Positions 39,872-55,723 of a DNA stretch of 64,000 nt are shown piece after piece. Position numbers and translations under genes: made by a program. Source of the DNA: Chloroflexota bacterium (GTDB lineage Bacteria > Chloroflexota > Anaerolineae > Anaerolineales > UBA4823); the NCBI GenBank assembly GCA_049325275.1, contig JBMOLU010000008.1, forward strand, positions 93,460 to 157,459. The letters are read 5' to 3'. The notes below the pieces were generated by a model. The model did no database searches and was not told the DNA's origin. It worked only from the letters and a program-made list of their open reading frames with translations. Every line of letters starts with the position of its first letter. Position 1 is the stretch's first letter.

Positions 39872-40866
39872 CCATGGTTTGGGTAATATTCTTCATCAGC
39901 GCGGCGCTGATCGTCTTCGCCGCCATGCAGCTCGCCAAATACGGCGACGTCATCGCCATCCGCACGCGCCTGGGCGGCATGTTCATCGGCGTGCTACTGC
40001 TAGCCGGGGTCACCTCGCTGCCGGAAGTCCTGACCACGATCAGCTCGCTCTCGGAAGGCGTCCCCAACCTGGCAGCCGGGAACCTGTTCGGCAGCAACCT
40101 GTTCAATATGTTCCTGCTGGCGATCCTGGATTTGCTGCACCGCAAGGATCGAATTTTGCGCAAAGCGGCGCTCAAGCACGCCCTGACAGGCAGCCTGACG
40201 GTGTTTCTGATCGGCCTGGCTGTGTTTTTCATCATGGCAGACGTTCACACGCGCATCGGCTGGATCGGCCTGGACAGCCTGGCGATCATGCTGGCCTACA
40301 TTGTAGGCGTGTGGCTGATCCAGAAAAACCAGACTCACCAAACGGTGACCGCGGCAGTGGAGGTTGAAGTTCCCAAAGGCACCCCTTCTCTGCTGGCCGG
40401 GCTAGTCGGCTTCGGCCTGGCTGCGACGGGCCTGGTGGTGATCACCCCCTGGATGGTGCGTGCCAGCGCCGAGATCGCCGAGATCACCGGGCTGGGGACC
40501 ACCTTTGTCGGTACGACCCTGGTCGCCATCGTCACCTCGCTGCCCGAGCTGGTGACGACCATTGCCGCGGTCAAGCTGGGCGCCGACGACATGGCAATCG
40601 GCAACCTGTTCGGCAGCAACTTGTTCAATATGTTTGCCCTGGGCCTGACAGACGTGTTCTACGTGCAGGGCCGTTTTCTCGGCGTCATCGACCCGGCCTT
40701 TTTGCTGGTGGGAATGCTCGGCCTGTTGATGACGGCGTTGGGGCTGATCGGCAACCTGATCCGGCTGGAACGGCGCGTCCTGTTCATCGAGTTGGATGCG
40801 CTGGCCTTGATGCTGATTTATTTTTCAGGGCTGTGGCTGCTTTATAACCGCGGGGTCAGTCCTTAA
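39868..40866 (+). CDS. CaCA-family (Na+/Ca2+ exchanger-like) antiporter
   Basis: Two alpha-repeats: GVTSLPEV..GNLFGSNLFN and VTSLPEL..GNLFGSNLFN. Confidence 0.9.
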   Translation: MTMVWVIFFISAALIVFAAMQLAKYGDVIAIRTRLGGMFIGVLLLAGVTSLPEVLTTISSLSEGVPNLAAGNLFGSNLFNMFLLAILDLLHRKDRILRKAALKHALTGSLTVFLIGLAVFFIMADVHTRIGWIGLDSLAIMLAYIVGVWLIQKNQTHQTVTAAVEVEVPKGTPSLLAGLVGFGLAATGLVVITPWMVRASAEIAEITGLGTTFVGTTLVAIVTSLPELVTTIAAVKLGADDMAIGNLFGSNLFNMFALGLTDVFYVQGRFLGVIDPAFLLVGMLGLLMTALGLIGNLIRLERRVLFIELDALALMLIYFSGLWLLYNRGVSP

Positions 40867-40908
40867 ACGTCGCATGCGCCGGGGGTGAACAAAAATCGAG
40901 TTGCAGTG

Positions 40909-40957
40909 CGTTGCGGACGCGGCACACGTTCGTGTGCCGCTTCCGCAACGTTTTTTT
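40909..40957 (+). terminator. Intrinsic terminator of the CBS-CaCA operon
   Basis: CGTTGCGGACGCGGCACAC-GTTC-GTGTGCCGCTTCCGCAACG followed by TTTTTTT. Confidence 0.75.
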
Positions 40958-41020
40958 CCCCGACAGAGAACGCTCGTCAAACTATCCCGAGGATCGAAAC
41001 CCCGGCTGCCAGCAAAGCGT

Positions 41021-41089
41021 TACCCAAATGGGTAGCGCCGGTGCCTGCTGCCCGCAGGGCTGCCGCCACCTTCATCACCCATTTGGGTA
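41021..41089. promoter_or_regulatory. Two copies of the palindrome TACCCA-NN-TGGGTA (candidate operator)
   Basis: TACCCAAATGGGTA at 41021-41034 and CACCCATTTGGGTA at 41076-41089, intergenic. Confidence 0.45.
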
Positions 41090-41289
41090 AACGGGATGAT
41101 TTTAATGGATGGGCCACTCGAAATCTGGCCTAACAAAATGATCCATACGGGCAATGGATGATGAGGCTCATCTTTCATAAAATAGCGGGCAAGTGAACGA
41201 TGAAACCGACAGCTTCAAAACGAACGATAAAGTCGATGGTTTTATCGTGAACGATCAGGAACACGACTTGGACGACAGCAGAGGTTCTC

Positions 41290-42594
41290 ATGTTAACCGC
41301 AATCCTTATCTTTTTCATCGCGTACGTGGCCATTGCCAGTGAAAAATTCCCCCGCCACTGGGTCGCCCTGACCGGCGGCGGCCTGCTCGTCGTGTTTGGC
41401 GTGCTCAGCCCTAACGAAGCCATGCAGTATATCAACTGGGAAACGCTGGGCCTGCTGGCCGGGATGTTCCTGCTGGTCTCGATCTTACAAGAAGCCGGTT
41501 TCTTCTCCTGGCTGGCTATGACGGCCGTGCGCAAGGTCAACTATCACCCGGCGGCATTGTTCGTGGTTTTGTTACTGTTGGCCGCATTTTTGGCCATGTG
41601 GATGGATTCGATCACAGTCATGCTCTTCCTGGCCGCCTTGACGGTGCAACTCTGCCGCCTGCTGCGCCTTGACCCCGTGCCGATCGTGATTGCGGAGGTC
41701 TGTGCGGCCAACACCGGTGGTGCGGCCACGTTGGTAGGCGACCCACCCAACGTGATCCTGGGTACCACACTCGGTTTCACCTTTTCCGATTTCGTCACCC
41801 ACACCGGACCGATTTCCGTTTTCCTGGCGTTCGTGCTGCTCGGCATTTTCTACTGGGTCAACCGCAAGTCACTCAAAGATGCCCATGCCGCGTTGACCGA
41901 AGAAACCATCGCCGAAATCGAAGCCCTGCACAACGAACCGCTTCACGCTCACCTGACACGGGTCGGCCTGACGGGTTTCCTGATGGCGGTCGGCCTGCTG
42001 ATTTTCCACATCCCGCTGACTCATGCCACCGGGCTGCCGATCAATGCCGCCACATCGGCCATCGTCCCTGCTGGATTGACACTGATTGCCTTGCGCGACG
42101 ATCAACGCCGCAAGTCGCTTGCCAAGGTCGACGGTGAGAGCATCCTGTTCTTTGCCGGGCTGTTCGTCCTGATCGGTGGATTGGAAAAAGCGCACATCTT
42201 CGAACGCCTGGCCGACCTGCTGACGCAAACAACGGCCGGCAGCCCCAGTGTGCTCGTTTTTGCCCTACACTGGGTGCCCGGCCTGGCATCCGGGGTGCTC
42301 GACAACGTCCCACTGGCGCTGGCGATGAGCTACGTGCTCCAGGACCTGGCGGCAAACCCCGGCACGCCTGCCCTGGCATTGATGGTTTGGTCCCTGGCGT
42401 TGGGCGTCGATATCGGCGGCAACATCACCCCGATCGGTGCGTCGGCGAACGTGGTGGCTTATTCCTATATGGAACACAACCACGGATCGGTCGGCTGGAA
42501 ACGCTGGCTGCTTTTGGCCGGGCCGGCAACAATCGTTGCCATGATCCTGGCATCAAGTCTGGTAATGCTCAAAGGGCATATTGGCTGGTATTGA
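41290..42594 (+). CDS. Second IT-superfamily (ArsB/NhaD/SLC13-like) permease
   Basis: INWETLGLLAGM, WMDSITV, ANTGGAATLVGDPPNV, LDNVPL, GVDIGGNITPIGASAN. Confidence 0.9.
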   Translation: MLTAILIFFIAYVAIASEKFPRHWVALTGGGLLVVFGVLSPNEAMQYINWETLGLLAGMFLLVSILQEAGFFSWLAMTAVRKVNYHPAALFVVLLLLAAFLAMWMDSITVMLFLAALTVQLCRLLRLDPVPIVIAEVCAANTGGAATLVGDPPNVILGTTLGFTFSDFVTHTGPISVFLAFVLLGIFYWVNRKSLKDAHAALTEETIAEIEALHNEPLHAHLTRVGLTGFLMAVGLLIFHIPLTHATGLPINAATSAIVPAGLTLIALRDDQRRKSLAKVDGESILFFAGLFVLIGGLEKAHIFERLADLLTQTTAGSPSVLVFALHWVPGLASGVLDNVPLALAMSYVLQDLAANPGTPALALMVWSLALGVDIGGNITPIGASANVVAYSYMEHNHGSVGWKRWLLLAGPATIVAMILASSLVMLKGHIGWY

Positions 42595-42744
42595 GCCAGG
42601 GAAGGAGAGACGATGCAGAAAAGCCGGAAAGTTGCAGGTCATCAATTTGAAGTCGGCACCAAAGACAGTTATCCAAGGGAAAACGTTCGTTCCCTTACGC
42701 CCGAAATCTAAGGAATTTTTGTAACTTCTCAATAATGCGGGGTA

Positions 42745-42785
42745 TGGGGTGTTTTGTGCGTGCTTCGCACGCACAAAACACCCCA
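42745..42785. repeat. Perfect 19-bp hairpin upstream of amt
   Basis: TGGGGTGTTTTGTGCGTGC-TTC-GCACGCACAAAACACCCCA. Confidence 0.7.
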
Positions 42786-42841
42786 CGCTCCCCCCACTTT
42801 TCGAGAAGATAGGAATTTTTGATGTTAGAAGGAGAAATCTC

Positions 42842-44215
42842 ATGAAAAGCAAGTTGGTCCTCAGTTCGATGAAGTGGTTACGCTGGGTGATGATCCCGGC
42901 AGTTGTATCGGTAGCACTGTTGAGCGCTGGCCCGGCCTTCGCCCAGGAACCGGATCCGGTGGCCGATCTAACCCGTGGCCTCAATACCGTGTGGGTCTTG
43001 TTGGCCGCCTTCCTGGTGTTTTGGATGCAAGCCGGCTTTGCCCTGGTAGAAGCCGGCCTGACGCGCGCCAAAAACACCACCAACATCCTGTTCAAAAACG
43101 TAATAGACTTCGTTTTTGCGACCCTGGCCTTTTGGGTCATCGGCTATGCCTTTATGTTCGGCAGCAGCGCCGGTGGGTTCATCGGAACGTCAAACTTCTT
43201 GATCGACGCCGCCGGTGAAGACGTGGCCGGGCTGCCGATCACGGCCTTCTGGCTGTTCCAACTGGTGTTTGCCGGAACCGCCGCCACGATTGTGTCGGGC
43301 GCCATGGCCGAACGTACGAAATTCGTCTCCTACCTGCTCTACAGTTTCTTCATCACGGCCATTATCTACCCGATTGCCGGTCACTGGATCTGGGGCGGCG
43401 GCTGGCTTTCGAGCTTCGGAGAGGGCTTCAAAGACTTCGCCGGCTCGACCGTCGTTCACAGCATCGGTGGCTGGCTGGCGCTGATCGGCACCCTCTTTTT
43501 GGGGCCGCGCATCGGCCGCTTTAGCAAAGACGGCAAAGCCAAGGCTATTCCCGGTCACTCCATTTCGCTGGCAACCCTGGGTGTCTTCATCCTGTGGTTG
43601 GGTTGGTTCGGGTTCAATCCCGGCTCGCAGCTGGCCGCTGACGGCGCCAATGCCGACGCCATCGCCCTCGTAGCCGTCAACACCAACATTGCCGCCGCTG
43701 CCGGCGCCATCGGTGCAATGATCCTGGCCTGGGCGCTCTACAAGAAGCCCGACCTGGGCAACACGCTCAACGGTGCCCTGGCCGGCCTGGTGGCCATCAC
43801 GGCGCCCTGTGCATTCGTCACCCCGCTCTCTTCCGTCATCATCGGCCTGGTCGGCGGCGTGCTGGTCATCCTGGGCAGCATCCTGCTCGAAAAACTCAAG
43901 ATCGACGATCCGGTTGGCGCCGTGCCCGTACACCTGATCAACGGCATCTGGGGGACCCTGGCGGTCGGGCTGTTTGCCGCAGGAAATGGCCTGTTCACCA
44001 CCGGGCAAGCAGGGCAATTGATCGCCCAATTGGTCGGCATTCTGGCCGTCGGCGCCTGGTGCATCGTTACCGGCACGATCTTGTTCGCTGCCATCAAAGC
44101 CCTCACCGGCTTGAGAGTCTCGCGTGAGGAAGAAATCAAGGGCCTGGACATCGAAGAACACGGTGTTGAAGCCTATGCCGGCGATATTGTTGGCTCGCTC
44201 GGTCTGGCAGACTGA
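42842..44215 (+). CDS. amt: Ammonium transporter
   Basis: FWMQAGFALVEAG, FQLVFAGT, DFAGSTVVH, WFGFNPGS, NGALAGLVAITA, DDPVGAVPVHL; N-terminal signal peptide; RBS AAGGAG. Confidence 0.96.
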   Translation: MKSKLVLSSMKWLRWVMIPAVVSVALLSAGPAFAQEPDPVADLTRGLNTVWVLLAAFLVFWMQAGFALVEAGLTRAKNTTNILFKNVIDFVFATLAFWVIGYAFMFGSSAGGFIGTSNFLIDAAGEDVAGLPITAFWLFQLVFAGTAATIVSGAMAERTKFVSYLLYSFFITAIIYPIAGHWIWGGGWLSSFGEGFKDFAGSTVVHSIGGWLALIGTLFLGPRIGRFSKDGKAKAIPGHSISLATLGVFILWLGWFGFNPGSQLAADGANADAIALVAVNTNIAAAAGAIGAMILAWALYKKPDLGNTLNGALAGLVAITAPCAFVTPLSSVIIGLVGGVLVILGSILLEKLKIDDPVGAVPVHLINGIWGTLAVGLFAAGNGLFTTGQAGQLIAQLVGILAVGAWCIVTGTILFAAIKALTGLRVSREEEIKGLDIEEHGVEAYAGDIVGSLGLAD

Positions 44216-44233
44216 TTTACCCAAATCCTGCAT

Positions 44234-44259
44234 GGGGCACCTGCTGCGAAAGGTGCCCC
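44234..44259 (+). terminator. Hairpin after amt
   Basis: GGGGCACCT-GCTGCGAA-AGGTGCCCC with a weak T-rich tail. Confidence 0.5.
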
Positions 44260-44339
44260 GTGCCGTTTATTTCGGCAAACAACCCTACCCGTCAGGCACC
44301 ATGCCTGCCCAAACCCCACAGCACAAAGTAGGTTCTCTC

Positions 44340-44642
44340 ATGCATGAAACACCCACCACCGGCCTGTTTTCGCCGCCCGCCCTGCTCTACCTGGGCATGG
44401 GCCTGGTAACGGCCCGCATCCTGCTTGAAGGCACGCGCACGCGCGGCTTGAAATGGCTCGAATGGTTGCAACTGCTGATCAAAGCAGCTTCCATCACGCT
44501 GCTTTGGCCGTTGGTATTGTTTTTGGAGCGATTTGAAGCCTGGCTCAAGGACATCAAACCTGCCGCTGAACAAGATGAAATAACGCACACCGTTTCCGCA
44601 CCCGCTTCCCACGAGGCCGTCCATGACAACGCAAGCCACTAA
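44340..44642 (+). CDS. Small hypothetical membrane protein (about 100 aa, two hydrophobic helices)
   Basis: MHETPTTGLFSPPALLYLGMGLVTARILLE..LLWPLVLFLERF; overlaps the APC start; an alternative ATG lies at 44301. Confidence 0.5.
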   Translation: MHETPTTGLFSPPALLYLGMGLVTARILLEGTRTRGLKWLEWLQLLIKAASITLLWPLVLFLERFEAWLKDIKPAAEQDEITHTVSAPASHEAVHDNASH

Positions 44643-46101
44643 TGCCATCGCCCCCGCCAAAAGCCCGGCGCGCAAGACCCTTGGGCTAACCGGGGTTACC
44701 ATCAACGCCATGGCGTTGACGGCGCCCGGGGCTTTCATTTGGCTGCTTTACCAGGCGCAGGCGGCTGCCACGCCGGGTGGCTACCTCGGCATCTGGCCGG
44801 GCGTGCTGTTGGCGCTGCTGGGGGCCGTGATCACGGCGCTTTCGTTCGGCGAACTGGCCCGCCGCTATCCCGAGGCCGGCCTGCGCAGCGCCTATCATTT
44901 TGCCGAGCAGGTTTTCCGCACGCAGGCCCTTCCGGCCCACCGCCCACGCGCGCGGGCAGCAAAGTTCATCACCGGCTGGACGGCCCACCTGTATTACTGG
45001 GTGTACCCTGGCGTGATGGTGGCCTTTATGGGCATCCTGGCCGACTACTTGCTGCGACAGTTTGGCTACCGGCCGACCGTTGCCGGCCAAATTATTCTGG
45101 CCTGCGCCTTTGCCGCCTTCATCGGTTTCCTGGCGCTGCGCGGAATCACCGGCACGACCACGTCGAGCATCATTCTCAACACCGTCCAACTGGTGACTCT
45201 CCTGGCCTTCAGCGGGCTGGCGATCCTGTTCCGCGTTACGAATCCGTTGGGGCTGGCGCCGGGCGAATGGGCAGCCCCCAGCGCCACAGCCGTTCTGCTG
45301 CCAGCCGGACTGGCCTCGCTGCTGCTCCAGGCGGCCCTGGCAATGATGTTGATGGCCGGATTCGAATCGTCCACCAGCCTGGCCGTTGCCGCTAACAATC
45401 CCAGCCGGGATATTCCTCGGGCCGCCGTACTGGCGTTGATCCTGCAAGGTGTGTTGGTCTACCTGCTCGAGTACTTTGCCGGCGGCCTGGCCTTCAACAC
45501 CCGCCTGGCGGCCCCCGCCTCGCTGCCGGCGCCCATTGGCGAGCTTGCCATACAAATCGGCGACGCCTTGCTGAAAGGCAATGGCTTTTCCTTCATGATG
45601 ATCATCGCCATGACAGTCATCGTCGCCCTGATCGCCGCCACGCTGACGGCCATGAACAACGGGGTGCGCATCACCTTCTCGATGGCCATGGACGACGAAC
45701 TGCCCGACCTGCTGGGCTTTCTGCATCCGAAATATGCCACGCCTTACGTAATCGTGATCCTGATGGGCGCTTTCAGCGGCGTAGTCGGTGCGGCCGGACT
45801 CCTGGGTGGCCTGCCGGTCCTGATGGGCATCATCCTGGCGGCAAATCTGGGCGCCTTCGCACTATACGCCCTGCTGTGTACGCTCACAATTGCCGCCTAT
45901 GCCGGCACCCCGGCGTTCCACGTCGTCAAACATGGCCTGCTTCCCATCCTGGGGCTGGCGCTCAACCTGGGCATGGTAATTGCCGTGCCCGTGATTGGCT
46001 TCGTCAGCGGCGGGCCGTTTGCCCAGGCAGCGGCCATCGCAGCCGGCCTGGCCGGGCTATGGCTGTTAATTTGTACCGTGTATTTTTTCATCAAGAAGTA
46101 G
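44623..46101 (+). CDS. APC-family amino acid/amine permease (paralog 1)
   Basis: KTLGLTGVTINAMAL.APGAF, ELARRYPEAG, AGFESS, HPKYATP; about 12 TM. Confidence 0.9.
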   Translation: MTTQATNAIAPAKSPARKTLGLTGVTINAMALTAPGAFIWLLYQAQAAATPGGYLGIWPGVLLALLGAVITALSFGELARRYPEAGLRSAYHFAEQVFRTQALPAHRPRARAAKFITGWTAHLYYWVYPGVMVAFMGILADYLLRQFGYRPTVAGQIILACAFAAFIGFLALRGITGTTTSSIILNTVQLVTLLAFSGLAILFRVTNPLGLAPGEWAAPSATAVLLPAGLASLLLQAALAMMLMAGFESSTSLAVAANNPSRDIPRAAVLALILQGVLVYLLEYFAGGLAFNTRLAAPASLPAPIGELAIQIGDALLKGNGFSFMMIIAMTVIVALIAATLTAMNNGVRITFSMAMDDELPDLLGFLHPKYATPYVIVILMGAFSGVVGAAGLLGGLPVLMGIILAANLGAFALYALLCTLTIAAYAGTPAFHVVKHGLLPILGLALNLGMVIAVPVIGFVSGGPFAQAAAIAAGLAGLWLLICTVYFFIKK

Positions 46102-46163
46102 GGGCGGACCCGGTTGTCCACCGGCCCGCGTGTTCGCCGGACAACCGGGAAAGGCGCCGGGGG

Positions 46164-46177
46164 TACCCAAATGGGTA
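46164..46177. promoter_or_regulatory. Palindrome TACCCAAATGGGTA (third copy)
   Basis: Identical to 41021-41034; intergenic, upstream of APC paralog 2. Confidence 0.45.
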
Positions 46178-46398
46178 TCTTCCGGGCTTGGTTTCACGCC
46201 CGAATTTGCGTTTTTATGCTCCAGTAAGCTCTCAAGATGCCCCATACGGGTACTGGTTTGGCACGCCTGCCTTACGTAAAATGGATTTTGTATCACCTAT
46301 TTGGACGAAATTGGCGATCGGTGTTTCCAACAATCCACACACTGCGCATCAATGCTGGTCGCCGGTGACCCGAATCCTGGGCACCAGAAAGGACAAGC

Positions 46399-47937
46399 AT
46401 GTCTAACCAACCCTCAGCCATCAAAAAAACTCTCGGCCTGACCGGTGTGACCGTCAACGCGATGGCCTTGATCGCGCCGGGCGCATTCTTATGGATGACT
46501 TACCAGCTCCAGGCAGCCAACGTCGACGCTGCAGGCGTCAGTACGGCCAAAGATATGTGGACGGGCATCGTTACCGCCCTGATCGTCGCCTTCTTGACGG
46601 CCATTGCCTTCTCGGAACTGGCACGGCGCTATCCCGATGCCGGTTCGGGCAGCGCCTATTATTTCGCTGAAAAGGCCTTTCTGGACAGGGAGAAAGCACA
46701 TCACCGGCGTTGGGCGCGCCTGGCCAAGTTCGTTACGGGATGGGCAGCGCACCTGTTTTACTGGGTTTACCCGGGCGTGATGGTGGCCTTCTTTACCGTT
46801 CTGGCAACCTATATCGCAGGCCAGTTCGGCATTGTCATCCCTATCCTGGGACAAATCGTCATCGCCTGGCTTTTTGCTGCCCTGGTCGGATCGATCGCCA
46901 TGCGCGGCATCAACGGCTCGACGACGGCTTCGATCGTCATCAATATCATCCAACTCACGGCCCTGGTGGTGTTTTCTGTGTTAGCGATCCTTTTCCGGGT
47001 GCAAAACCCGCTGGGGATACAGCCTCATGAATGGTACCATCCGACGAGTTCGTCGATCGTCTTCCCGCACAGTTTGAGCGGGATGTTGTTCCAGTCGACG
47101 ATTGCCATTTTGATCCTGGTCGGTTTCGAATCATCGACCGCACTCGGCGCAGAGGCAAAGAACCCCAAGAAAGACATTCCGCGCGGCGTGATCCTGTCGT
47201 TGGTCATTCAAGGCATCTTCGCTTACCTGCTGGAATATTTTGCGGCCAACTACGCCTTGAGCGATCGGTTGGTTTCTGCCGACGGGGCCTTGAAAGGCAT
47301 TTCGGCTGCGGCTGCCTCGGGGGCTCCAATCGGCGACCTGGCCGTCCAAATTGGCAACACGTTCCTGGCCGGGAATGGCTTTGCCTTTATGTTGATCATT
47401 GCCTTCACGGTAGCGATCGCCATTCTCGGAACAACGCTGGCAGCCATGAACACGGGGGTGCGCATCAGCTTCGCCATGTCGCAAGATGCCGAAATGCCCG
47501 ATCTGATGGGTATGCTGCACGAAAAATACGCCACCCCCTATGTCGGTGTCGTCATCATGGTCATCGTTTCGGGCCTGGTTGCTACGATTGGCGTGGCAGG
47601 TGGTGTGACAGCCCTCACCGGGATCACCCTGGCCTCGAACCTCGGCACGTTCGTCTTGTATGCCCTGATCTGTGGTTTGACCTTCGTGGCTTTCAACGGA
47701 AACGCCGAATTCGACCCCTTCAAACACGCCGTGATCCCTTTCGCCGGCCTGGTGGCCAACGTGATCATGGTACTGGCAATTTTCATCATCGGCATTCTGT
47801 CGGGCGGCACCACTGCGCAGGCAACCTTCCTGTCCCTGGGGATTGCGGCTGCCTGGCTTACGCTGAGCGTGGTCTATTTCATAGTTAACAGCCGACGAAC
47901 CGGAAAGGCAATCATTCCAAAAGTCGTAGGAAACTGA
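46399..47937 (+). CDS. APC-family amino acid/amine permease (paralog 2)
   Basis: KTLGLTGVTVNAMALIAPGAF, ELARRYPDAGSGSAY, VGFESSTALGAEAKNP, HEKYATP; RBS AAAGGA. Confidence 0.92.
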   Translation: MSNQPSAIKKTLGLTGVTVNAMALIAPGAFLWMTYQLQAANVDAAGVSTAKDMWTGIVTALIVAFLTAIAFSELARRYPDAGSGSAYYFAEKAFLDREKAHHRRWARLAKFVTGWAAHLFYWVYPGVMVAFFTVLATYIAGQFGIVIPILGQIVIAWLFAALVGSIAMRGINGSTTASIVINIIQLTALVVFSVLAILFRVQNPLGIQPHEWYHPTSSSIVFPHSLSGMLFQSTIAILILVGFESSTALGAEAKNPKKDIPRGVILSLVIQGIFAYLLEYFAANYALSDRLVSADGALKGISAAAASGAPIGDLAVQIGNTFLAGNGFAFMLIIAFTVAIAILGTTLAAMNTGVRISFAMSQDAEMPDLMGMLHEKYATPYVGVVIMVIVSGLVATIGVAGGVTALTGITLASNLGTFVLYALICGLTFVAFNGNAEFDPFKHAVIPFAGLVANVIMVLAIFIIGILSGGTTAQATFLSLGIAAAWLTLSVVYFIVNSRRTGKAIIPKVVGN

Positions 47938-48482
47938 TGGCCCCCTTAGACACCTCCACCCTGCGCATCATCCGCTATGGCCCCGATCAAGTGCAAGCCC
48001 TGCATGAAATCATCACCGAATGTGGTGAGGATCTGAAACGCCGCTTTGGATTGATTCACTGGGCGCCACCGCAACCGCTCGAACACCTGCGCCGTGAGGC
48101 CTACGAATCGAATGTCTACGGCATTCACCGGCAAAACGGGCACGGGGAGGAGGTGCTCGGGACCTTTACGGTCGGTACCAACGGCTGGACATACGACGAG
48201 AAACTGTGGGCAGACGCCCGCCACCGCCCGCTCTACCTCGGCAAACTGGCCATACGCCCGGAACATCAGGGGCAGGGCCTTGGAAAGTGGTGTGTCTGGA
48301 AAGTAGAAGAATTTGCCCACGCCTGGAAATGCCAGGTCGTGCGTTTCGATGCCTTTGCCCAACACACGCATCTGATCCGGTTCTACCAAAACCAGGGATA
48401 TACCGTGCGCGGCACGCGCCCGGTCATCGATTGGCGCGGCCTGGAATGGGAGGTCGTTTACTTTGAAAAGGTTCTCGAGTAA
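47937..48482 (+). CDS. GNAT-family acetyltransferase
   Basis: LYLGKLAIRPEHQGQGLG (motif A), VRFDA, LIRFYQNQGY. Confidence 0.88.
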   Translation: MAPLDTSTLRIIRYGPDQVQALHEIITECGEDLKRRFGLIHWAPPQPLEHLRREAYESNVYGIHRQNGHGEEVLGTFTVGTNGWTYDEKLWADARHRPLYLGKLAIRPEHQGQGLGKWCVWKVEEFAHAWKCQVVRFDAFAQHTHLIRFYQNQGYTVRGTRPVIDWRGLEWEVVYFEKVLE

Positions 48483-49362
48483 CGGCTACCATCCGTTAGG
48501 GCGTAACCGCCTGCTGGCTGAAATTGAAGCAAGCGGGTTGAGCATCGTCGGCCCGGTACGGGAAGATAACCAGGACGCCATCCTGTTGCCCGACGAATCC
48601 ATACCGCAGCCTGCCGGCTCATTATTCGCTGTGGCTGACGGCATGGGTGGCTATACGCACGGCGCCATAGCCAGCGCCCTGGCATTGGAGACCTTGTTCA
48701 CCGCCTTGCAGCAAAGCCCAAACCAAAAACCCGAAAAAGCACTGCGCCGCGGCATCGAGGCTGCAAACCTGAACATTTTCAAAGCCGCCCAAAACCTCGG
48801 CGTCGGGCGCATGGGCACAACCCTTACGGCCGCCTACATCTGTGGGAGCAGCCTCTACCTGGCCCATGTCGGTGACAGCCGGGCCTATCTGATGCGGCAA
48901 GGAAAAATAAGCTGCCTGACCAACGATCACACATTGGTCGGTGACATGGTGCGCGCCCGCCTGATCGCACCTGCCAAAGTTCGCACCCACGCCCAACGCT
49001 CGATCCTCACACGCGCCCTCGGATTGGCAATGTTTATCCAGCCGGACGTCGAGCAGTTCAAGCTCGAGGCCGGCGATCGGTTGATCCTTTGCAGCGATGG
49101 CGTCTGGTCTGCCTTGCAAGATGAGGAGATCGCTCAAATCGCCGGCCAGAAGGCCCGCGCGGAAACATTAGGACAAGCGCTCGTCGACCAGGCAGTTGCA
49201 CACGAAACCGACGATAACTGCTCTGCCGTGGTGATGCACGTCCAGGGATTCGTCGAGATCGAATCGCCGGCTGATAGCCAAAACGGCCTGCCAAAACAAA
49301 CGAGTTGGCTTCGAAAGATTTTCGGGCTTAACCGCTTACCCGTGGAGCAGTATCAAAAGTGA
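48463..49362 (+). CDS. PP2C/PPM-family Ser/Thr phosphatase
   Basis: VREDNQDA, AVADGMGG, MGTTL, HVGDSRAY, LCSDGV, DDNCS; TTG start with GGGAGG upstream. Confidence 0.92.
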   Translation: MKRFSSNGYHPLGRNRLLAEIEASGLSIVGPVREDNQDAILLPDESIPQPAGSLFAVADGMGGYTHGAIASALALETLFTALQQSPNQKPEKALRRGIEAANLNIFKAAQNLGVGRMGTTLTAAYICGSSLYLAHVGDSRAYLMRQGKISCLTNDHTLVGDMVRARLIAPAKVRTHAQRSILTRALGLAMFIQPDVEQFKLEAGDRLILCSDGVWSALQDEEIAQIAGQKARAETLGQALVDQAVAHETDDNCSAVVMHVQGFVEIESPADSQNGLPKQTSWLRKIFGLNRLPVEQYQK

Positions 49363-49376
49363 GCTATGCATACCTA

Positions 49377-49385
49377 TGCTATAAT
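49377..49385 (+). promoter_or_regulatory. Extended -10 promoter in front of the kinase
   Basis: TG-C-TATAAT, 10 nt upstream of ATG 49396. Confidence 0.55.
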
Positions 49386-49395
49386 CGCGGATAAG

Positions 49396-50367
49396 ATGCT
49401 ACAAGTCGGCGATCAGTTTGACCAATATCAGATCCAGTCGCACATGGCCCAGGGGGGAATGAGCGACGTTTACCGGGCTTACGATCTCGTCCACCGGCGT
49501 GAAGTGGTCATCAAGGTTCCCGATCAATCGATGATCGGTGATCCGGCCCAGTATGAACGCTTCCAACGCGAACTGGAAGTGATGAGCACGCTCGATCATC
49601 CGGCGATTCTCAAAGGGTTAGGCTCCGGGCGTTACAATCGCGTCCCCTATCTGGCGACCGAATTTGTCGAAGGCCAATCTTTGCGCGAAATCATCGAAAC
49701 GAGCGCCCCGCTCAAACCCGAAGAGGCCATCCCACTCGTGCTCAAAATTGCCGATGGCATGGCCTATTGCCATCGCAACCAGGTCATTCACCGCGATCTG
49801 AAACCTGAAAATATCCTGGTAACGGTGACGGGCCAACCGGTGATTATGGATTTCGGCCTGGCCCTAACCAAAGGTTCGCACCGTGTGACTTATTCCAACC
49901 TGAGCGCCACGATGGGCACCCCCGACTACATGGCCCCAGAGCAAATCGACGGGCAGCGCGGCGACGCCCGCACCGATGTCTACGCCCTGGGGACGATCCT
50001 GTTCGAAATGCTGGCCGGCCGCCTGCCCTTCACCGGCGACACGCCCATGGCGATCATGGCGCAGCACCTGAACGGCGCTGCACCTCGTCTCGACCGCCTG
50101 AATCCGGCCATTTCGCCGGCATTGGCTGCCATCGTGGCAACCAGTTTGCAGCGCGATGCCGATAAGCGCTATCCCGATATGCCGGCGTTCATGGCCGCCC
50201 TGGAACACCCCGAAAGCGCCGACCTCGCCATTCTGGATACCATCAGCGAGACGCCGCCGGCCGCCCCATCGCTAGAAAACCGGCAAACCGTCAAAGCAGT
50301 CGGCATTGCCTTGGCTATCCTGGCCGGGATTGTCGTGTTGGCGTTTTTACTCCAGGCGCTTCGTTAA
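49396..50367 (+). CDS. Hanks-type Ser/Thr protein kinase with a C-terminal TM anchor and no extracellular domain
   Basis: GGMSDVY, VVIK, HRDLKPEN, DFGLA, GTPDYMAPE, DVYALG; ends in a hydrophobic helix plus QALR. Alternative start at 49366. Confidence 0.92.
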   Translation: MLQVGDQFDQYQIQSHMAQGGMSDVYRAYDLVHRREVVIKVPDQSMIGDPAQYERFQRELEVMSTLDHPAILKGLGSGRYNRVPYLATEFVEGQSLREIIETSAPLKPEEAIPLVLKIADGMAYCHRNQVIHRDLKPENILVTVTGQPVIMDFGLALTKGSHRVTYSNLSATMGTPDYMAPEQIDGQRGDARTDVYALGTILFEMLAGRLPFTGDTPMAIMAQHLNGAAPRLDRLNPAISPALAAIVATSLQRDADKRYPDMPAFMAALEHPESADLAILDTISETPPAAPSLENRQTVKAVGIALAILAGIVVLAFLLQALR

Positions 50368-50403
50368 AACGCGCGATCAAAGCCTCTCGTAAGGAAGTCC
50401 GAC

Positions 50404-51747
50404 ATGACCAACGCTTCGCCCGCATCCATCGCTGACGTTTTGCACATCGTTGAGCAAAAGCACATCCGCTACATCGATCTACAGTTTACCGATGTGGTTG
50501 GCGTGGTCAAGAATGTAACTATTCCTGGGCGCGAGCTGGCGCAGGCTCTCGAAAACGGGATCTGGTTCGACGGTTCCTCCATCGAGGGTTTTGCGCGTGT
50601 TGCTGAAAGCGACATGCACCTGCGTCCTGATCTCAATACTTTTGCTGTTTTGCCCTGGCTGGGCGAAAAAGAAGCCACCGCCCGCCTGATTTGTGATGTC
50701 TACACGCCGGACGGGCAACCTTTCCAGGGTGACCCACGAGCCGTCCTGCGCAGGATCATCGCCGACGCCGAAACGATGGGGTTTCGTTACAATACCGGCC
50801 CGGAACTGGAGTTTTTCCTGCTCAAGCCTCACGCCGATGGCAGCCTGCTCCCACCGGTGCCCCACGATTTAGCCGCTTACTTCGACGCCCCGTCCGACAT
50901 GGCCGCCGGGCTGCGCCGCCAGATGGCCAACACACTTGAAGCCCTCGGCATCCAGGTCGAGGCCATGCACCACGAGGGCGCCCACGGCCAGCATGAAATC
51001 GACTTCCGCTATTCCGATGCCCTCAGCACCGCCGACAGTTCCGTCACGCTGCGTGTGGCGCTCAAGATAGTCGCCCAGGCCAACGGGCTGTACTGCACTT
51101 TTCTGCCCAAACCCATGCGTGGCATCAATGGCAGCGGTATGCACGTGCACCAGAGCCTCGAGTATCTGGCCACCGGCCAAAATGCCTTCGCCGATCCGGG
51201 CGATTCGCACGGGCTCTCGAAAATCGCCAAACATTTCATCGCCGGGCAGTTGGCGCACGCCCGCGGGATGTGCGCAATTTTGGCCCCGCTGGTCAACTCG
51301 TATAAACGGCTGGTGGCGGGTTACGAAGCGCCGGTTTTCGTTAGTTGGGCGCGCATCAACCGCTCGGCGCTGATCCGTGTGCCGCGTGCATCCGGAAGCG
51401 AATCGACGCGCCTGGAGTTACGCTGCCCGGATCCGAGTTGCAATCCCTACCTGGCCTTTGCCGTCATGCTCGCCGCCGGGTTGGATGGTATCCGCCGGGA
51501 ACTGCCGGTACCCGAGGCCACCGAAGAAAATATCTATTTACTCGATCGCCGCAGCCCCATGTCGCTGGGAATTTTGCCCGGCTCACTCAACCAGGCGCTC
51601 AACGCCCTGGAAGAGGACGAGGTCATCTGTGCCGCCCTGGGCGCCCACCTTACCGAGCGTTTTATCTCGGCCAAGCGCCTGGAATGGGAAGATTTCCGCC
51701 TCGATGTAACCCCCTGGGAACTGGAAAAATACCTGGCGAACTACTGA
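50404..51747 (+). CDS. glnA: Glutamine synthetase type I (alpha-like)
   Basis: FDGSSIEGF, GPELEFF, HHE..GQHEIDF, PKP..GINGSGMH, NSYKRL..GYEAP, NRSALIRVP, ELRCPDPSCNPYL. Confidence 0.95.
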   Translation: MTNASPASIADVLHIVEQKHIRYIDLQFTDVVGVVKNVTIPGRELAQALENGIWFDGSSIEGFARVAESDMHLRPDLNTFAVLPWLGEKEATARLICDVYTPDGQPFQGDPRAVLRRIIADAETMGFRYNTGPELEFFLLKPHADGSLLPPVPHDLAAYFDAPSDMAAGLRRQMANTLEALGIQVEAMHHEGAHGQHEIDFRYSDALSTADSSVTLRVALKIVAQANGLYCTFLPKPMRGINGSGMHVHQSLEYLATGQNAFADPGDSHGLSKIAKHFIAGQLAHARGMCAILAPLVNSYKRLVAGYEAPVFVSWARINRSALIRVPRASGSESTRLELRCPDPSCNPYLAFAVMLAAGLDGIRRELPVPEATEENIYLLDRRSPMSLGILPGSLNQALNALEEDEVICAALGAHLTERFISAKRLEWEDFRLDVTPWELEKYLANY

Positions 51748-51761
51748 AAAATTCAAGGTAC

Positions 51762-51808
51762 CCGAAAAGCCCTGCCATGGCGCGATAACCGATGGTGGGG
51801 CTTTTCGG
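51762..51808. terminator. Intrinsic terminator after glnA
   Basis: CCGAAAAGCCCTGCCATGG..CCGATGGTGGGGCTTTTCGG. Confidence 0.7.
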
Positions 51809-51847
51809 TTGCACGCGCGATTGGGAGACTTGCAGTACAATTTTATT

Positions 51848-53365
51848 ATGTTCCCTCCGGCTTCTTCGCCAGATAAACCGCCCCGTTTGACAGACAAGCC
51901 GTTCAGGTTTCATGACCTGGGCCAGCGCATCGGTACAGAAATCGATCGCGCCAGCCCACGGCTGCTGGCAGCCTTTCTTTTTTACACCCTGGCCCTGATC
52001 TTCCTGTTGACGCAACTCGATCTGATCGGCGGCGACAGCCCACCCACCGTTTACCTGCCGGTGAGCATCTTGCGCTGGGGCACTTTTCGGCTCGATCCGC
52101 TCATGGGGCAAGTGCCCGTACTTTTCAACCCCGAAAAGCCCCCCTCTTATCTGACACAGATAGACGGCCATTTCTATTCCAAATTCTCACCATTTCCGGC
52201 GTTGCTTTCGATACCCGTGTATGCGATCTACATGCTCGTCGGCCCGCCGGAAAACTACGCCGTTTACCTGACGCTTTCACGCCTGATGAGCGTGCTCGTT
52301 TCGACCGTCACAGCGATCACAGTGTTCTATCTGCTACGCATCATTTTGCCGCAGCGCCGCGCCCTCTTTTTGACCTTCGTGTACGCGCTGGCCACGTTCG
52401 CCTGGCCGATGGCAACGAATACCTTTGCCACGCAAAGTACGGGAGAGATGTTTCTGGCATTGGCTGTGCTGATGCTGGCAAAAATATCCATGCAGCCTTC
52501 ACCGGAGGCGCCAAACGCCGTTCCCGTCAAACTCTACGCCCTGGCCGGTTTCTTTGCCAGCCTTGCGCTGATCTCCCGCCCACAAACTTTGCCCGCGGCT
52601 TTGCTGCTCAGCATTTACCTGCTGCAATTCACCGGTAGAAGATGGCGGGCATTGTTCGCCTATGGAATCGCAGCCACGCCGGCAGCGGTTTTCCTGGCCG
52701 CATACAATACCTGGGCCTTTGGCGCTCCCTGGCGTACAGGTTACCAGGGCGAAGCTCTGTTTGGCTGGTCATACCCGCTATGGAAGGGCCTGCCGGGTAT
52801 TTTGATCTCCCCCAGCCATGGTTTATTGATGTACAGCCCGGTCATGCTGCTCGCATTCGTCGGTGGTTGGATAGTATGGCGGCGGTCAGGAAAAGCGTTA
52901 CCCCAGTGGGCCTTGGGGCGCTACCTGGCCGCTATCAGCCTGCTGCAACTGTTTTTGATGAGCGGCTGGCACTACTGGAACGGTGGCAACGCCTATAACC
53001 AACGTATGCTGCATGAGGTAACGCCGCTGATCGTCCTGCTGATCGGGTTGGCCTGGCACCAGTATGCACCAAGCCGCCTCTTCTCGTTAGCCCTGGCTGC
53101 CACAACCGCATGGGGCATCTGGATGAATGTGGTACGCGTGGCTTTTTACGATCAGCATATTTTTTGGAGCGAAATCTATCGTCCAGAAATCGATTGGTCA
53201 CTGGCCTTTTCAGAGCTGGCGATGTACATCCATTGGCACGGGCTGGCCGGAATGCTTGCGGGAGCAGGCCAGGTTGCACTCATGGTCGGCGGACTGCTGC
53301 TTGCGTTGACTGTGGTCATGATACGTTTTGTGATGGTGAGCAATGCAAAGCAAAGCGCCGGGTAA
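51848..53365 (+). CDS. GT-C-fold-like multi-TM membrane protein (putative glycosyltransferase)
   Basis: GDSPPTVYLPVSILRWG, SKFSP, SRPQ, GLPGILISPSHGL, GNAYNQRML; more than 10 TM. Confidence 0.65.
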   Translation: MFPPASSPDKPPRLTDKPFRFHDLGQRIGTEIDRASPRLLAAFLFYTLALIFLLTQLDLIGGDSPPTVYLPVSILRWGTFRLDPLMGQVPVLFNPEKPPSYLTQIDGHFYSKFSPFPALLSIPVYAIYMLVGPPENYAVYLTLSRLMSVLVSTVTAITVFYLLRIILPQRRALFLTFVYALATFAWPMATNTFATQSTGEMFLALAVLMLAKISMQPSPEAPNAVPVKLYALAGFFASLALISRPQTLPAALLLSIYLLQFTGRRWRALFAYGIAATPAAVFLAAYNTWAFGAPWRTGYQGEALFGWSYPLWKGLPGILISPSHGLLMYSPVMLLAFVGGWIVWRRSGKALPQWALGRYLAAISLLQLFLMSGWHYWNGGNAYNQRMLHEVTPLIVLLIGLAWHQYAPSRLFSLALAATTAWGIWMNVVRVAFYDQHIFWSEIYRPEIDWSLAFSELAMYIHWHGLAGMLAGAGQVALMVGGLLLALTVVMIRFVMVSNAKQSAG

Positions 53366-54554
53366 CTGGCTGTTTCGCATCGCGCTGGCTGTCAATCTTG
53401 GCCTGGCAATCGCTTATCTTTTGCTGGGGGTTATAGCTTTCCAACAAGGGCTGCTCTGGCGGGCAGACTTCACCGCCTTCTATACGGGTGGCCTGATGGT
53501 CCGGGAGGACGCCGGAAAACAGCTATACGATTACGAGCTGCAAACCCGTTTCCAGCAAGAACTACTTCAGGGGAAAAGCTTTTATGAAGGGTTGCTGCCT
53601 TTCAACTACCCGCCTCACGTAGCCCTGCTGTTTGCACCGCTGGCGCACTTTTCCCGTTCGACTGCGTTTGCGGTTGGGCTTGTCGTTCAATTCGGCCTGC
53701 TGCTATGGTTGCTAAAGAACCTGCTGCGGTTGAGTAAAAACTGGCTGCGCACAGAAAAGATACTGCTCATCAGCGGCGTGTTGGGTTTTTTTCCACTCTT
53801 CTTGAATATGTTGTTGGGGGCGTTTTCTTTGTTTGTCGTCGACTGTTTGCTAGCCTGGTACCTGGCTTTAAAAGAACAAAGGGAAGCCAGGTCCGGCTTG
53901 TGGCTCGTAACAGGCAGCGTCAAGCCGCAAACAGTCATCATCCCTGGCCTGGTACTATTTTTTGGACGCCGTTGGCGGGCCATCCTGGCAATTACCCTGG
54001 GCGGCCTGGGATTGATGCTGTTTACGGCCATTTTTCTTGGTGTGGACATTTGGGCAGACTTTATCCGCATACTACGCCTGAGTTCGTCGTTCTTCGATGA
54101 ATATGGCATCTACCCGTCAGAAATGTACAATCTGAAAGGTACACTGGCGCTCTGGCTAGGCAACTCGCACAAATCTTTAATCAATACCATCAGCCTGGCC
54201 GGGTTCCTGCTGGCGATCGGCGTCACTGCCTGGCTGTGGCGAGGACCCTGGCAACCCACCGAACCTGATTTCGAGCTACGGTTGGCAGTTACACTCATCC
54301 TGGGCATACTCCTGGGAATGCACGTCAACCCACAGGACAGTTTGCTACTCGTAATGCCAGCGCTTCTGTTTTATGAATACCTGCGCCGTATGAATCTGCC
54401 CCGTAAGACTTATGGCGTGTTTTTGTGGGCCTGCCTGCCTTTGTTTTTGGTCGGCGAATTCTCCATTCAAGCACGGCTAGGCATTCGCCTGCCGGTGGTT
54501 GCCATGCTGGTGCTGTTCGGCTGGTCGGGGAAAGCGCTGTGGGATCGGCGATGA
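53343..54554 (+). CDS. GT87/DUF2029-like glycosyltransferase
   Basis: ADFTAFYTGG, FNYPP, VKPQ, HVNPQD. Confidence 0.8.
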   Translation: MQSKAPGNWLFRIALAVNLGLAIAYLLLGVIAFQQGLLWRADFTAFYTGGLMVREDAGKQLYDYELQTRFQQELLQGKSFYEGLLPFNYPPHVALLFAPLAHFSRSTAFAVGLVVQFGLLLWLLKNLLRLSKNWLRTEKILLISGVLGFFPLFLNMLLGAFSLFVVDCLLAWYLALKEQREARSGLWLVTGSVKPQTVIIPGLVLFFGRRWRAILAITLGGLGLMLFTAIFLGVDIWADFIRILRLSSSFFDEYGIYPSEMYNLKGTLALWLGNSHKSLINTISLAGFLLAIGVTAWLWRGPWQPTEPDFELRLAVTLILGILLGMHVNPQDSLLLVMPALLFYEYLRRMNLPRKTYGVFLWACLPLFLVGEFSIQARLGIRLPVVAMLVLFGWSGKALWDRR

Positions 54555-55723
54555 GGCTTCGAAAGGCCTCGTTGTGGGCCTCGTTTGTGATAGCCCTGAT
54601 CGCCCTATTTGCTGTGGCGACACAGTCTCGCTTGAATGGCCTGGAAATGGGAGGAGATTTCGTACAATACTGGTCGGCAGGGCGCTTGAATTTACAGGGC
54701 AAAAGCCCCTACAATGTCGAGCAGTTGGCGGAACTCCAGCGTCCACACGAGCCGGCAGGCGGGCAAGCCTTGATCATGTGGCTACCGCCCTGGGCTTATG
54801 CGCTTGTCATGCCGGTCGGCATGTTACCTTACACTATTGCACGCGTGGCTTGGCTTCTACTCGAAGTCGCGATCGTTTTCGCCTGCACCAACTGGCTGTG
54901 GGCGCACTACCGGGGAGCGAAAGGCTGGGTATGGCTGGCGTGGATCGTCAGCTTTCTGCATTGGGCGACCCTCGAAGCGCTGCGCGGCGGCCAGGTCTCA
55001 CCGTTTGTGTTCGCCGGCGCGGTGTGTTTCCTGGCTGCTATCCAGCGCAAACAGCCGTGGCTGGCAGGAATGTCGCTAGCCCCGGTCCTGCTCAAACCGC
55101 ACTTGCTCTACTTGTTCAGCCTGGCGGCCCTTCTATGGTCGTTCAAAGAACGCCAATGGCGTGTCCTTAGCGGCTGCGGGGTGTCCCTGCTTGCAGGGAC
55201 TGCGCTTGCCTGCCTGCCCAACCGGCACTTACTGGCTCAATATATCGAAAGCGCACGCCAACAACCACCCGATCAGTGGATCACGGCGACAATTGGTGGG
55301 CAGTTACGGCTACACTTTGGTGCCGAACACTTCTGGTTACAGTTTGTTTCTGTGGTAGTGGGCCTGGCCTGGCTCGCCTGGTACTGGCGCCGCCACCACC
55401 ATACATGGAACTGGTGGAAGCGAACGCCTCCCCTGGCAATGGTTTCCCTGGGCACCGCTGCGTATGGTTGGCGGCACGACCAAATAGTCACCTTGCTAGC
55501 AATCTTACCGCTCCTTGCGTGGGTCGTCACAGCAAAGTGGCCTGCCTTATGTAAAGGCATCTTTCTGGGGCTGTACCTCTCGATCAACTGGATCGCAATT
55601 GCTTCTACCCAACCACAAGATTGGTTCTGGTGGCTTCCATGGGCCGTTTTGGCCTGGTACCTTGTTGCGCAGAGGTTACAAAGAAAATTTTCCACACCGG
55701 GGGCGGCAGAGACGATCCCATGA
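54551..55723 (+). CDS. GT87/DUF2029-like glycosyltransferase
   Basis: GDFVQYWSAG, SPY, WLPPW, GQVS, LKPH; ATGA overlap with the upstream gene. Confidence 0.8.
   Translation: MRLRKASLWASFVIALIALFAVATQSRLNGLEMGGDFVQYWSAGRLNLQGKSPYNVEQLAELQRPHEPAGGQALIMWLPPWAYALVMPVGMLPYTIARVAWLLLEVAIVFACTNWLWAHYRGAKGWVWLAWIVSFLHWATLEALRGGQVSPFVFAGAVCFLAAIQRKQPWLAGMSLAPVLLKPHLLYLFSLAALLWSFKERQWRVLSGCGVSLLAGTALACLPNRHLLAQYIESARQQPPDQWITATIGGQLRLHFGAEHFWLQFVSVVVGLAWLAWYWRRHHHTWNWWKRTPPLAMVSLGTAAYGWRHDQIVTLLAILPLLAWVVTAKWPALCKGIFLGLYLSINWIAIASTQPQDWFWWLPWAVLAWYLVAQRLQRKFSTPGAAETIP

Follow-up and report, generated by a model that had tools for sequence, protein, structure and literature searches.

Post-translational control of glutamine synthetase (GS) is textbook knowledge for the GSI-beta enzymes, in which it is exerted through GlnE, PII and GlnD. 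The control of the GSI-alpha enzymes is known mainly in the form of feedback inhibition and the action of partner proteins. Kinases that control or read a nitrogen-source transporter are represented by Npr1 with Mep2/Gap1 in yeast and by CIPK23 with AMT1 in plants. The nearest published fact to the system described here is that the Bacillus subtilis kinase PrkC phosphorylates GlnA in vitro (PMC6213207). This report deals with a module of four genes, encoding an APC-superfamily permease, a PP2C phosphatase, a tail-anchored Hanks Ser/Thr kinase and a GSI-alpha glutamine synthetase. It lies in a 64,000-nucleotide stretch of DNA, hereafter the window (contig JBMOLU010000008.1, positions 93,460 to 157,459), from a member of the Anaerolineae whose 6.9-Mb metagenome-assembled genome (G000) is 99.9% complete. 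An initial annotation of the window had proposed a single nitrogen-control system, without GlnK, that also took in an ammonium transporter (amt), an acetyltransferase, a small membrane protein and a second permease. The part of that proposal which stands is the set of permease, phosphatase, kinase and glnA; the conserved core comprises just these four genes, at window positions 46399-51747:

46399-47937, + strand: APC2, the module-specific APC-superfamily permease, core gene 1 (AA_permease PF00324, 75.9 bits, cut-off 24.6)
48463-49362, + strand: PP2C, a soluble Ser/Thr phosphatase, core gene 2 (PF00481, 84.4 bits, cut-off 20.3)
49366-50367, + strand: tail-anchored Hanks Ser/Thr kinase, core gene 3 (PF00069, 169.3 bits, cut-off 31.7)
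50404-51747, + strand: glnA, GSI-alpha glutamine synthetase, core gene 4 (TIGR00653, 498 bits, cut-off 429)

The conservation of this core was followed in two collections of loci. An APC-anchored set comprises the 80 best APC2 loci of GTDB species genomes, which were compared with the window proteins by tblastn, and a kinase-anchored set comprises 80 loci, at 41-82% identity, found when metagenomes were scanned for the kinase. Permease, PP2C, kinase and GS follow one another in this order, on one strand and with at least 70% coverage of each gene, in 65 of the 80 APC-anchored loci; the other 15 are made up of 8 truncated contigs, 5 loci with fragmented matches and 2 that lack the GS. Over both sets together, the permease and the GS are present in 102 loci, and the conservation of gene order that the initial annotation had named as its own check was found in these, across four phyla. 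The phyla are the Chloroflexota (Anaerolineae), Spirochaetota (Treponemataceae and Rectinemataceae), Ignavibacteriota and Bacteroidota (Chitinophagaceae), and closed chromosomes that carry the module are available for Leptolinea sp. HRD-7 (AP024710.1), Ignavibacteriota (OY761615.1, OY969585.1) and Bacteroidota (OY970334.1). All kinases of at least 58% identity that have enough flanking sequence are accompanied by the permease upstream and the GS downstream, with the exception of locus L081. Across the APC-anchored loci the identity to the window proteins is 62-85% for the permease, 41-62% for PP2C, 56-77% for the kinase and 65-84% for the GS, and these identities are correlated between the genes (r = 0.62-0.76). 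Metagenomes also hold thousands of APC2 homologues at 75-89% identity, annotated no further than "amino acid transporter".

The members of the module also keep company with one another at the level of whole genomes. Of 201 evenly sampled Anaerolineae genomes, just the window's own and one other (G187) contain the kinase orthologue. The same two genomes are the only ones with any match to the permease subfamily at E <= 1e-20, and the only ones with a GS of more than 70% identity, which falls in the module-GS clade. GSI-alpha enzymes at 50-66% identity are present in 127 of the 201, and at none of the 19 loci of such non-module GSI-alpha genes that were inspected is an APC, PP2C or kinase gene found alongside.

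In a maximum-likelihood tree, 49 module GS sequences from the four phyla form one clade (UFBoot/SH-aLRT 100/98) that is nested within the non-module GSI-alpha enzymes of the Anaerolineae. Inside this clade the spirochaete sequences nest among the module GS of the Anaerolineae, and those from Ignavibacteriota and Bacteroidota group together in a single subclade. The tree of the kinases has the same shape. Other GS enzymes of the order to which the window's organism belongs share only 52-55% identity with the module GS, and are thereby more distant from it than the module GS of Bacteroidota. Eight substitutions (D25, L140, P163, L170, M188, R239, G266 and C290) form a signature of the module GS. 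Taken together, the GS and kinase trees indicate that the association of the two proteins arose once and then moved between phyla as a unit, and this single origin was probably in the Anaerolineae. Judged from these trees, the module is a horizontally mobile four-gene operon. The shared order, the mirrored trees and the co-occurrence of the permease support the view that the kinase, PP2C, one APC permease and glnA form a genuine unit of function, linked to the assimilation of nitrogen.

The kinase has a domain that is closest to the kinase domains of PknB and StkP. A single transmembrane (TM) segment is predicted at the C-terminus, at residues 306-331, and is followed by only 2 residues, which leaves no external domain; the initial description of a membrane-anchored kinase without an external sensor is therefore upheld. 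For the coordinates given above, gene callers place the start at Met11. The proteins of this family end 2-5 residues beyond the TM segment, which closes with LQxxR/H, and share a linker motif, hPExxDLsiLd, between the kinase domain and the terminal segment. The kinase motifs VIKVP, HRDLKPEN, DFG and GTPDYMAPE are conserved over 52 orthologues. When compared with the PASTA kinase model NF033483, the window kinase scores 291 bits, with a cut-off of 450, and matches profile positions 7-271 only; PASTA repeats are absent. The phosphatase retains the metal-binding Asp motifs DGMGG, DGVW and DDN, scores 217.1 bits against the Stp1/IreP equivalog NF033484, under its cut-off of 230, and has Stp1 and tPphA as its nearest solved structures. 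At one Ignavibacteriota locus (L066), a single 609-aa open reading frame after the permease covers both PP2C and kinase; this is a fusion that occurs in nature or else an artefact of assembly.

The product of glnA aligns over its full length to the GSI-alpha structures 8oow and 4lnf/4s0r (E 1e-140 or better), and the GSI-beta structures match it only from residue 157 on. The module GS conserves the catalytic, ammonium and glutamate sites in the motifs FDGSSIEGF, YFD, HHE..GQHEIDF, NGSGMH and GYEAP. It reaches 297 bits against the gamma-glutamylputrescine synthetase model NF045547, where the cut-off is 650, and 374.5 bits against the type III GS model, where the cut-off is 469.6. With these motifs retained, and with a TIGR00653 score above the cut-off, the original assignment as a true GS and not a gamma-glutamyl-amine ligase has held. 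For the permease APC2, an AF2 model (pLDDT 82.8, pTM 0.86) matches AdiC, GkApcT, BasC, the LATs and ApcT in Foldseek at a TM-score of about 0.6-0.7 and 15-18% identity; it also matches KimA and NKCC, and the fold is one common to the APC superfamily at large. The best match by sequence in the PDB is weak (E 7e-9). The protein keeps the GFES motif in TM6 and, as read from the sequence, APGAF in TM1. According to the model, APC2 is an APC-fold transporter, and its substrate class is not assignable from family or fold matches.

The gene content and coordinates of the region are as they were first listed, with all genes on the + strand. The features that surround the core are as follows:

41021-41034 (exact) and 41076-41089 (one mismatch), no strand: palindrome TACCCA-N2-TGGGTA in two copies, lying 5' to the CitMHS gene listed next
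41290-42594, + strand: CitMHS-family transporter, a context gene preceding amt
42746-42785, + strand: perfect hairpin with an 18-bp stem and a TTCG loop, between the CitMHS gene and amt (-44.3 kcal/mol, z -8.4)
42842-44215, + strand: amt, ammonium transporter with a signal peptide (PF00909, 436 bits)
44230-44263, + strand: intrinsic-terminator-like hairpin directly past amt, 13 bp and GC-rich, with a T-rich tail (-28.1 kcal/mol, z -4.4)
about 44301-44642, + strand: open reading frame for a small membrane protein with two TM segments (no Pfam match)
44623-46101, + strand: APC1, paralogous to the module permease APC2, with which it shares 51% identity (AA_permease, 32.5 bits)
46164-46177, with a degenerate second copy at 46239-46252, no strand: palindrome TACCCAAATGGGTA, in the 297-nt gap upstream of APC2
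47937-48482, + strand: GNAT acetyltransferase (PF00583, 44.5 bits, cut-off 20.7)
51758-51812, + strand: long hairpin after glnA (-34.6 kcal/mol, z -4.8)

The initial annotation had all of these genes ending at one terminator, which does not agree with the arrangement of the hairpins. The amt gene is followed by a hairpin and T-tract of its own, further hairpins lie 3' of APC1 and after glnA, and APC1 is separated from APC2 by 297 nt that contain the conserved palindrome. From APC2 to glnA the genes overlap or are separated by gaps of no more than 36 nt. The amt terminator, the APC1 hairpin, the 297-nt gap and this close packing together delimit a tight unit of APC2, GNAT, PP2C, kinase and glnA, and the hairpin at 51758-51812 is likely to mark the end of the operon. 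A single operon spanning the whole nine-gene stretch was considered and rejected, both for the terminator that follows amt and for poor conservation. The hairpin upstream of amt could be either the terminator of the preceding gene or a regulatory element of amt itself. A search of window positions 40000-53000 for riboswitches and other known RNAs (Rfam, E <= 1) returned only spurious miRNA matches on this hairpin. Directly past glnA, window positions 51848-55723 encode a 505-aa multi-TM protein without a Pfam match and then two GT87-family glycosyltransferases, which appear to be an unrelated cell-envelope cluster.

The palindrome TACCCAAATGGGTA has three exact copies in the genome, upstream of APC2, of the CitMHS gene and of an MFS transporter (C8:236028), and a copy with one mismatch is found about 150 nt upstream of nifH (C8:41927). 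In most of the Anaerolineae relatives it recurs upstream of the permease, at -140 to -165 and at -75 to -82. The palindromes are candidate operators for a nitrogen regulator and its regulon, and the interval 46164-46252 is likewise a candidate promoter region for the core operon. Their placement favours the view that the core has a promoter of its own, linked to nitrogen. In the window, no good match to a sigma-54 promoter is found upstream of APC2; the spirochaete loci instead carry a sigma-54-type promoter, TGGCAC-N5-TTGC. No match to an NtcA or TnrA box was seen upstream of amt on inspection by eye.

The remaining genes of the stretch are local. The GNAT gene occurs within the module only in the window and at L010, that is, at 2 of about 180 loci, and acetylation is thus not a conserved feature of the system as had been supposed. 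The GNAT protein has no NCBIfam match and only weak matches to small-molecule acetyltransferases (E 0.009 or worse); roles as a methionine sulfoximine- or phosphinothricin-detoxifying (MSO/PPT) enzyme or as a protein acetyltransferase were considered and rejected, as support at the level of the family was not found. The amt gene adjoins the module in a minority of loci only. The small protein and APC1 are absent from the 80 APC-anchored loci. Four close relatives (L118, L125, L127 and L130) have the order CitMHS, small protein, APC1-type permease, PP2C, kinase and GS, and here the homologues of the small protein stand directly upstream of the APC1-type permease. Since they are 51-66% identical to it in all four, the small protein is a real and conserved partner of APC1-type permeases; its codon-position GC resembles that of real genes, and its 3' end overlaps the start of APC1 by 20 nt. 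The window appears to combine both permease variants, the APC1 type and APC2. By comparison of the loci, amt, GNAT and the small protein-APC1 pair are lineage-specific additions that lie outside the conserved system.

Elsewhere in the genome, the complement of nitrogen genes is distinctive. The amt gene of the window is the only one and lacks a glnK partner. The sole P-II genes are nifI1 and nifI2, which belong to a nifH-nifI1-nifI2-nifD-nifK-nifE-nifN-nifB operon (C8:32800-41800, L003) on the same contig, outside the window and about 53 kb upstream of the cluster. No GlnB, GlnK or GlnD was found anywhere in the genome. A GlnE is encoded on contig C84 (PF03710, 308 bits), and the only other GS, of 470 aa, is encoded on contig C29, ahead of a GAF histidine kinase and a double-REC LuxR-type regulator. 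Given the nif operon, the organism is read as a putative diazotrophic member of the Anaerolineae that has GlnE and lacks GlnB, GlnK and GlnD. The initial statement that no glnK, glnE or glnR adjoins the cluster is correct. As to the genome at large, the expected lack of glnB and glnK and of a canonical glnK-amt pair is confirmed, but GlnE and a second GS are present.

A survey of neighbours, in which the flanking open reading frames of module loci were clustered and then compared with Pfam, places the system in a wider context. Recurrent neighbours are P-II, Amt, GlnE (PF03710, 330 bits), the GOGAT large subunit and CitMHS-type transporters, together with a second GS that is accompanied by a GAF histidine kinase and a response regulator. 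The module therefore sits in nitrogen-assimilation superclusters, often alongside PII. In most module loci a P-II gene is absent from the surrounding 10 kb. The absence of GlnK, which had been taken as a defining trait, is a property of the window's genome and not of the system. In diderm phyla, a BBP2 (OmpL-like) beta-barrel porin is encoded immediately upstream of the permease in about 20 loci (for example L084:783-1883), often with P-II before it, a placement that suggests import of an external solute through the permease. In the Leptolinea-type loci L018, L022, L061, L118, L125 and L130, the module has a CitMHS gene on its upstream side. CitMHS or CitMHS_2 genes are found beside the module in two phyla, the window itself having them at 38204-39514 and 41290-42594; in the Bacteroidota and Ignavibacteriota loci L063, L071, L075, L082 and L086 a CitMHS-type transporter is encoded downstream of the GS. 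These transporters may supply carbon skeletons for assimilation, as citrate or 2-oxoglutarate.

Kinases at 41-49% identity are still preceded by the permease and PP2C, and their fourth partner varies. It is GS in L167, L171, L173 and L183, Amt in L181 and GOGAT in L172. PII genes lie nearby in L182 and L187, and in L180, L186 and L188 two or three PII-like genes are inserted between PP2C and kinase. At L186:3509-6975 there are three such genes (118, 149 and 116 aa), one of them with a long NifI2-like insertion, with the same type of permease upstream and no GS. The fourth gene beside the trio is a central nitrogen function in every case, whether GS, PII-like protein, Amt or GOGAT, and the embedded PII-like proteins are candidate phospho-substrates. 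The P-II proteins encoded next to the module in Bacteroidota and Ignavibacteriota (L077:8477-8821, L079, L086, L075 and L053) have the T-loop sequence YRGSEY, which we take to be the Ser49-type motif of cyanobacterial PII.

The interpretation that we favour, by a modest degree, is that the module forms a membrane-localised phospho-switch linking its dedicated permease to GS. The kinase would be held at the membrane by its C-terminal tail anchor and would form, with PP2C, a reversible switch beside the permease. Such a switch might couple the transport or occupancy state of the permease, or a cytoplasmic nitrogen metabolite, to the synthesis of glutamine, the targets of the kinase being the GS of the module, its permease or the two together. 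In a genome that lacks GlnB, GlnK and GlnD, the cassette could provide the GSI-alpha enzyme with a post-translational control of its own, while the second GS would stay under GlnE. That the GS is a direct substrate of the kinase is more tentative, and we regard it as possible rather than probable. The pairing of kinase and substrate, the cargo of the permease and the direction of control are the parts of the mechanism that we infer.

Several observations weigh against the phospho-switch. GS is a soluble dodecamer, and a kinase would not need a tail anchor in order to reach it. No clade-specific gain of Ser or Thr is found in the module GS. The permease could not be assigned to a named APC subfamily, since every NCBIfam match falls under its cut-off (the best being TIGR00909, 95.5 bits against 556.8). 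Two loci, L021 and L081, lack the GS despite enough sequence, and are the only such cases among the 80 APC-anchored loci. The variable fourth partner of the distant relatives makes the permease-PP2C-kinase trio the deepest conserved core, and the GS may thus be an output of the system or merely co-expressed with it. Lastly, a search for sequencing runs listed only DNA runs from one biofilm-metagenome study, just one of which contains the sequence studied here, and no RNA run.

Much of this same evidence can be turned towards the permease. The kinase-PP2C pair may regulate the permease itself, the GS being co-expressed as the assimilating enzyme and not as a phospho-substrate: the tail anchor puts the kinase in the membrane of the permease, the permease subfamily occurs solely with the kinase, the trio persists in distant clades that have no GS, and the module GS has acquired no new phosphosite signature. 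We hold this to be unlikely as the whole account, as the GS follows the kinase at essentially every locus of the window's clade, and a separate GS clade that co-diverges with the kinase goes beyond what co-expression requires; regulation of the permease is in any case compatible with the phospho-switch, and both may hold. A related possibility, rather unlikely on present evidence, is that the permease, PP2C and tail-anchored kinase make up a nitrogen "transceptor", in which the permease senses an external nitrogen compound and the kinase, docked by its tail anchor, phosphorylates whichever effector is encoded next to it. Here the effector would be GSI-alpha; in other clades it would be a PII-like protein, Amt or a GOGAT-linked partner, and the cassette would represent a PII-independent form of post-translational nitrogen control that is spreading between phyla. 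If, on the other hand, the substrates are proteins of the PII type, here NifI1 and NifI2, then the pair would report nitrogen status to nitrogenase and the adjacency of GS would be secondary. The insertion of PII-like genes at L180, L186 and L188, between PP2C and kinase, is in keeping with this, as are the YRGSEY T-loops of the module-adjacent P-II proteins, with their presumed likeness to Ser49-type PII, the presence of tPphA, a homologue of the phosphatase of phosphorylated PII, among the closest solved PP2C structures, and the palindrome common to the upstream regions of nifH and the module. It is nonetheless quite improbable, because the window's genome has neither GlnB nor GlnK, most module loci have no P-II nearby, the invariant partner in the window's clade is GS and not PII, and we know of no phosphorylation of NifI proteins.

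Two further explanations concern the extent of the system and the identity of the enzyme. The full version given in the initial annotation, in which the nine-gene stretch is one system whose phosphorylation and acetylation control GS and Amt in place of GlnK, draws on the common strand of all the genes, the lack of a glnK partner for amt and the lack of GlnB and GlnK in the genome. It is very improbable, and is largely contradicted by the poor conservation of GNAT and amt; moreover, amt has its own terminator, and relatives that carry the module often have P-II and amt adjoining it. In the other explanation the module is a cassette for a specific amine or amino acid, which the permease imports and a GS-like enzyme, not a true GS, gamma-glutamylates. 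GS-like gamma-glutamyl ligases beside APC permeases are known in actinomycetes, the dedicated permease is always encoded with the ligase, and the BBP2 porin recruited upstream in diderm hosts suggests uptake of an external solute. The enzyme, however, exceeds the GlnA cut-off (498 against 429 bits), is far under those for gamma-glutamylputrescine synthetase (297 against 650) and the type III enzymes, conserves the GS motifs listed above and belongs to a clade nested in the ordinary GSI-alpha of the Anaerolineae; in addition, the 470-aa enzyme on C29 is the only other GS in the genome. We therefore consider this the most improbable of the readings.

If the phospho-switch is borne out, a dedicated kinase and phosphatase encoded with a GSI-alpha enzyme and a private permease would amount to a new layer of control. 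The phyla that carry the module are abundant in wetlands, sediments and digesters, and how they regulate nitrogen has hardly been studied. The hypothesis lends itself to direct testing, as Leptolinea sp. HRD-7 is cultured, has a closed genome and carries the module, and the four proteins are of a size suited to experiments in vitro. Which kinases phosphorylate proteins of the PII type has long been an open question, and one to which the distant variants, with their inserted PII-like genes, are also relevant; to our knowledge, the kinase for Ser49 of cyanobacterial PII has not been found.

No description of a kinase-PP2C-permease-GS operon was found in the full-text literature searched, and the module is best placed by comparison with systems that share one or other of its parts. 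The PknB/PstP, Stk1/Stp1 and PrkC/PrpC systems resemble it in that the genes for a Hanks kinase and a PP2C are neighbours. The kinases of the PknB/Stk1 type have extracellular PASTA repeats, whereas the module kinase has neither these nor any other external domain; both module proteins fall under the NCBIfam equivalog cut-offs (kinase 291 against 450, PP2C 217 against 230), and the pair is encoded with a private permease and a GS and not with cell-wall or division genes. The control of GSI-beta by GlnE, PII and GlnD is similar in that GS is reversibly and covalently modified according to nitrogen status, as is proposed for the module. That system uses adenylylation of Tyr on GSI-beta, whereas the module would use phosphorylation of Ser/Thr on GSI-alpha, with the regulator in the same operon, and the window's genome contains GlnE and the second GS elsewhere, in the absence of GlnB, GlnK and GlnD.

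The phosphorylation of cyanobacterial PII at Ser49, with its phosphatase PphA, likewise places a PP2C in nitrogen signalling, and is echoed in the PII-like genes embedded in the distant relatives and in the RGSEY T-loop of some module-adjacent PII proteins; in the window's clade, however, the constant partner is GS, and the window's genome has no GlnB or GlnK. The sequestration of GlnK by AmtB also conveys a nitrogen signal from a membrane transporter to cytoplasmic assimilation, but the transporter of the module belongs to the APC superfamily and not to Amt, and the signalling would proceed through a kinase and a phosphatase in place of PII. The proposed logic is analogous to that of Npr1 and CIPK23, and these proteins are unrelated to those of the module. 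Hanks kinase-PP2C signalling is itself well known, and as far as can be read from the genes it appears here to be newly wired to a private permease and a glutamine synthetase.

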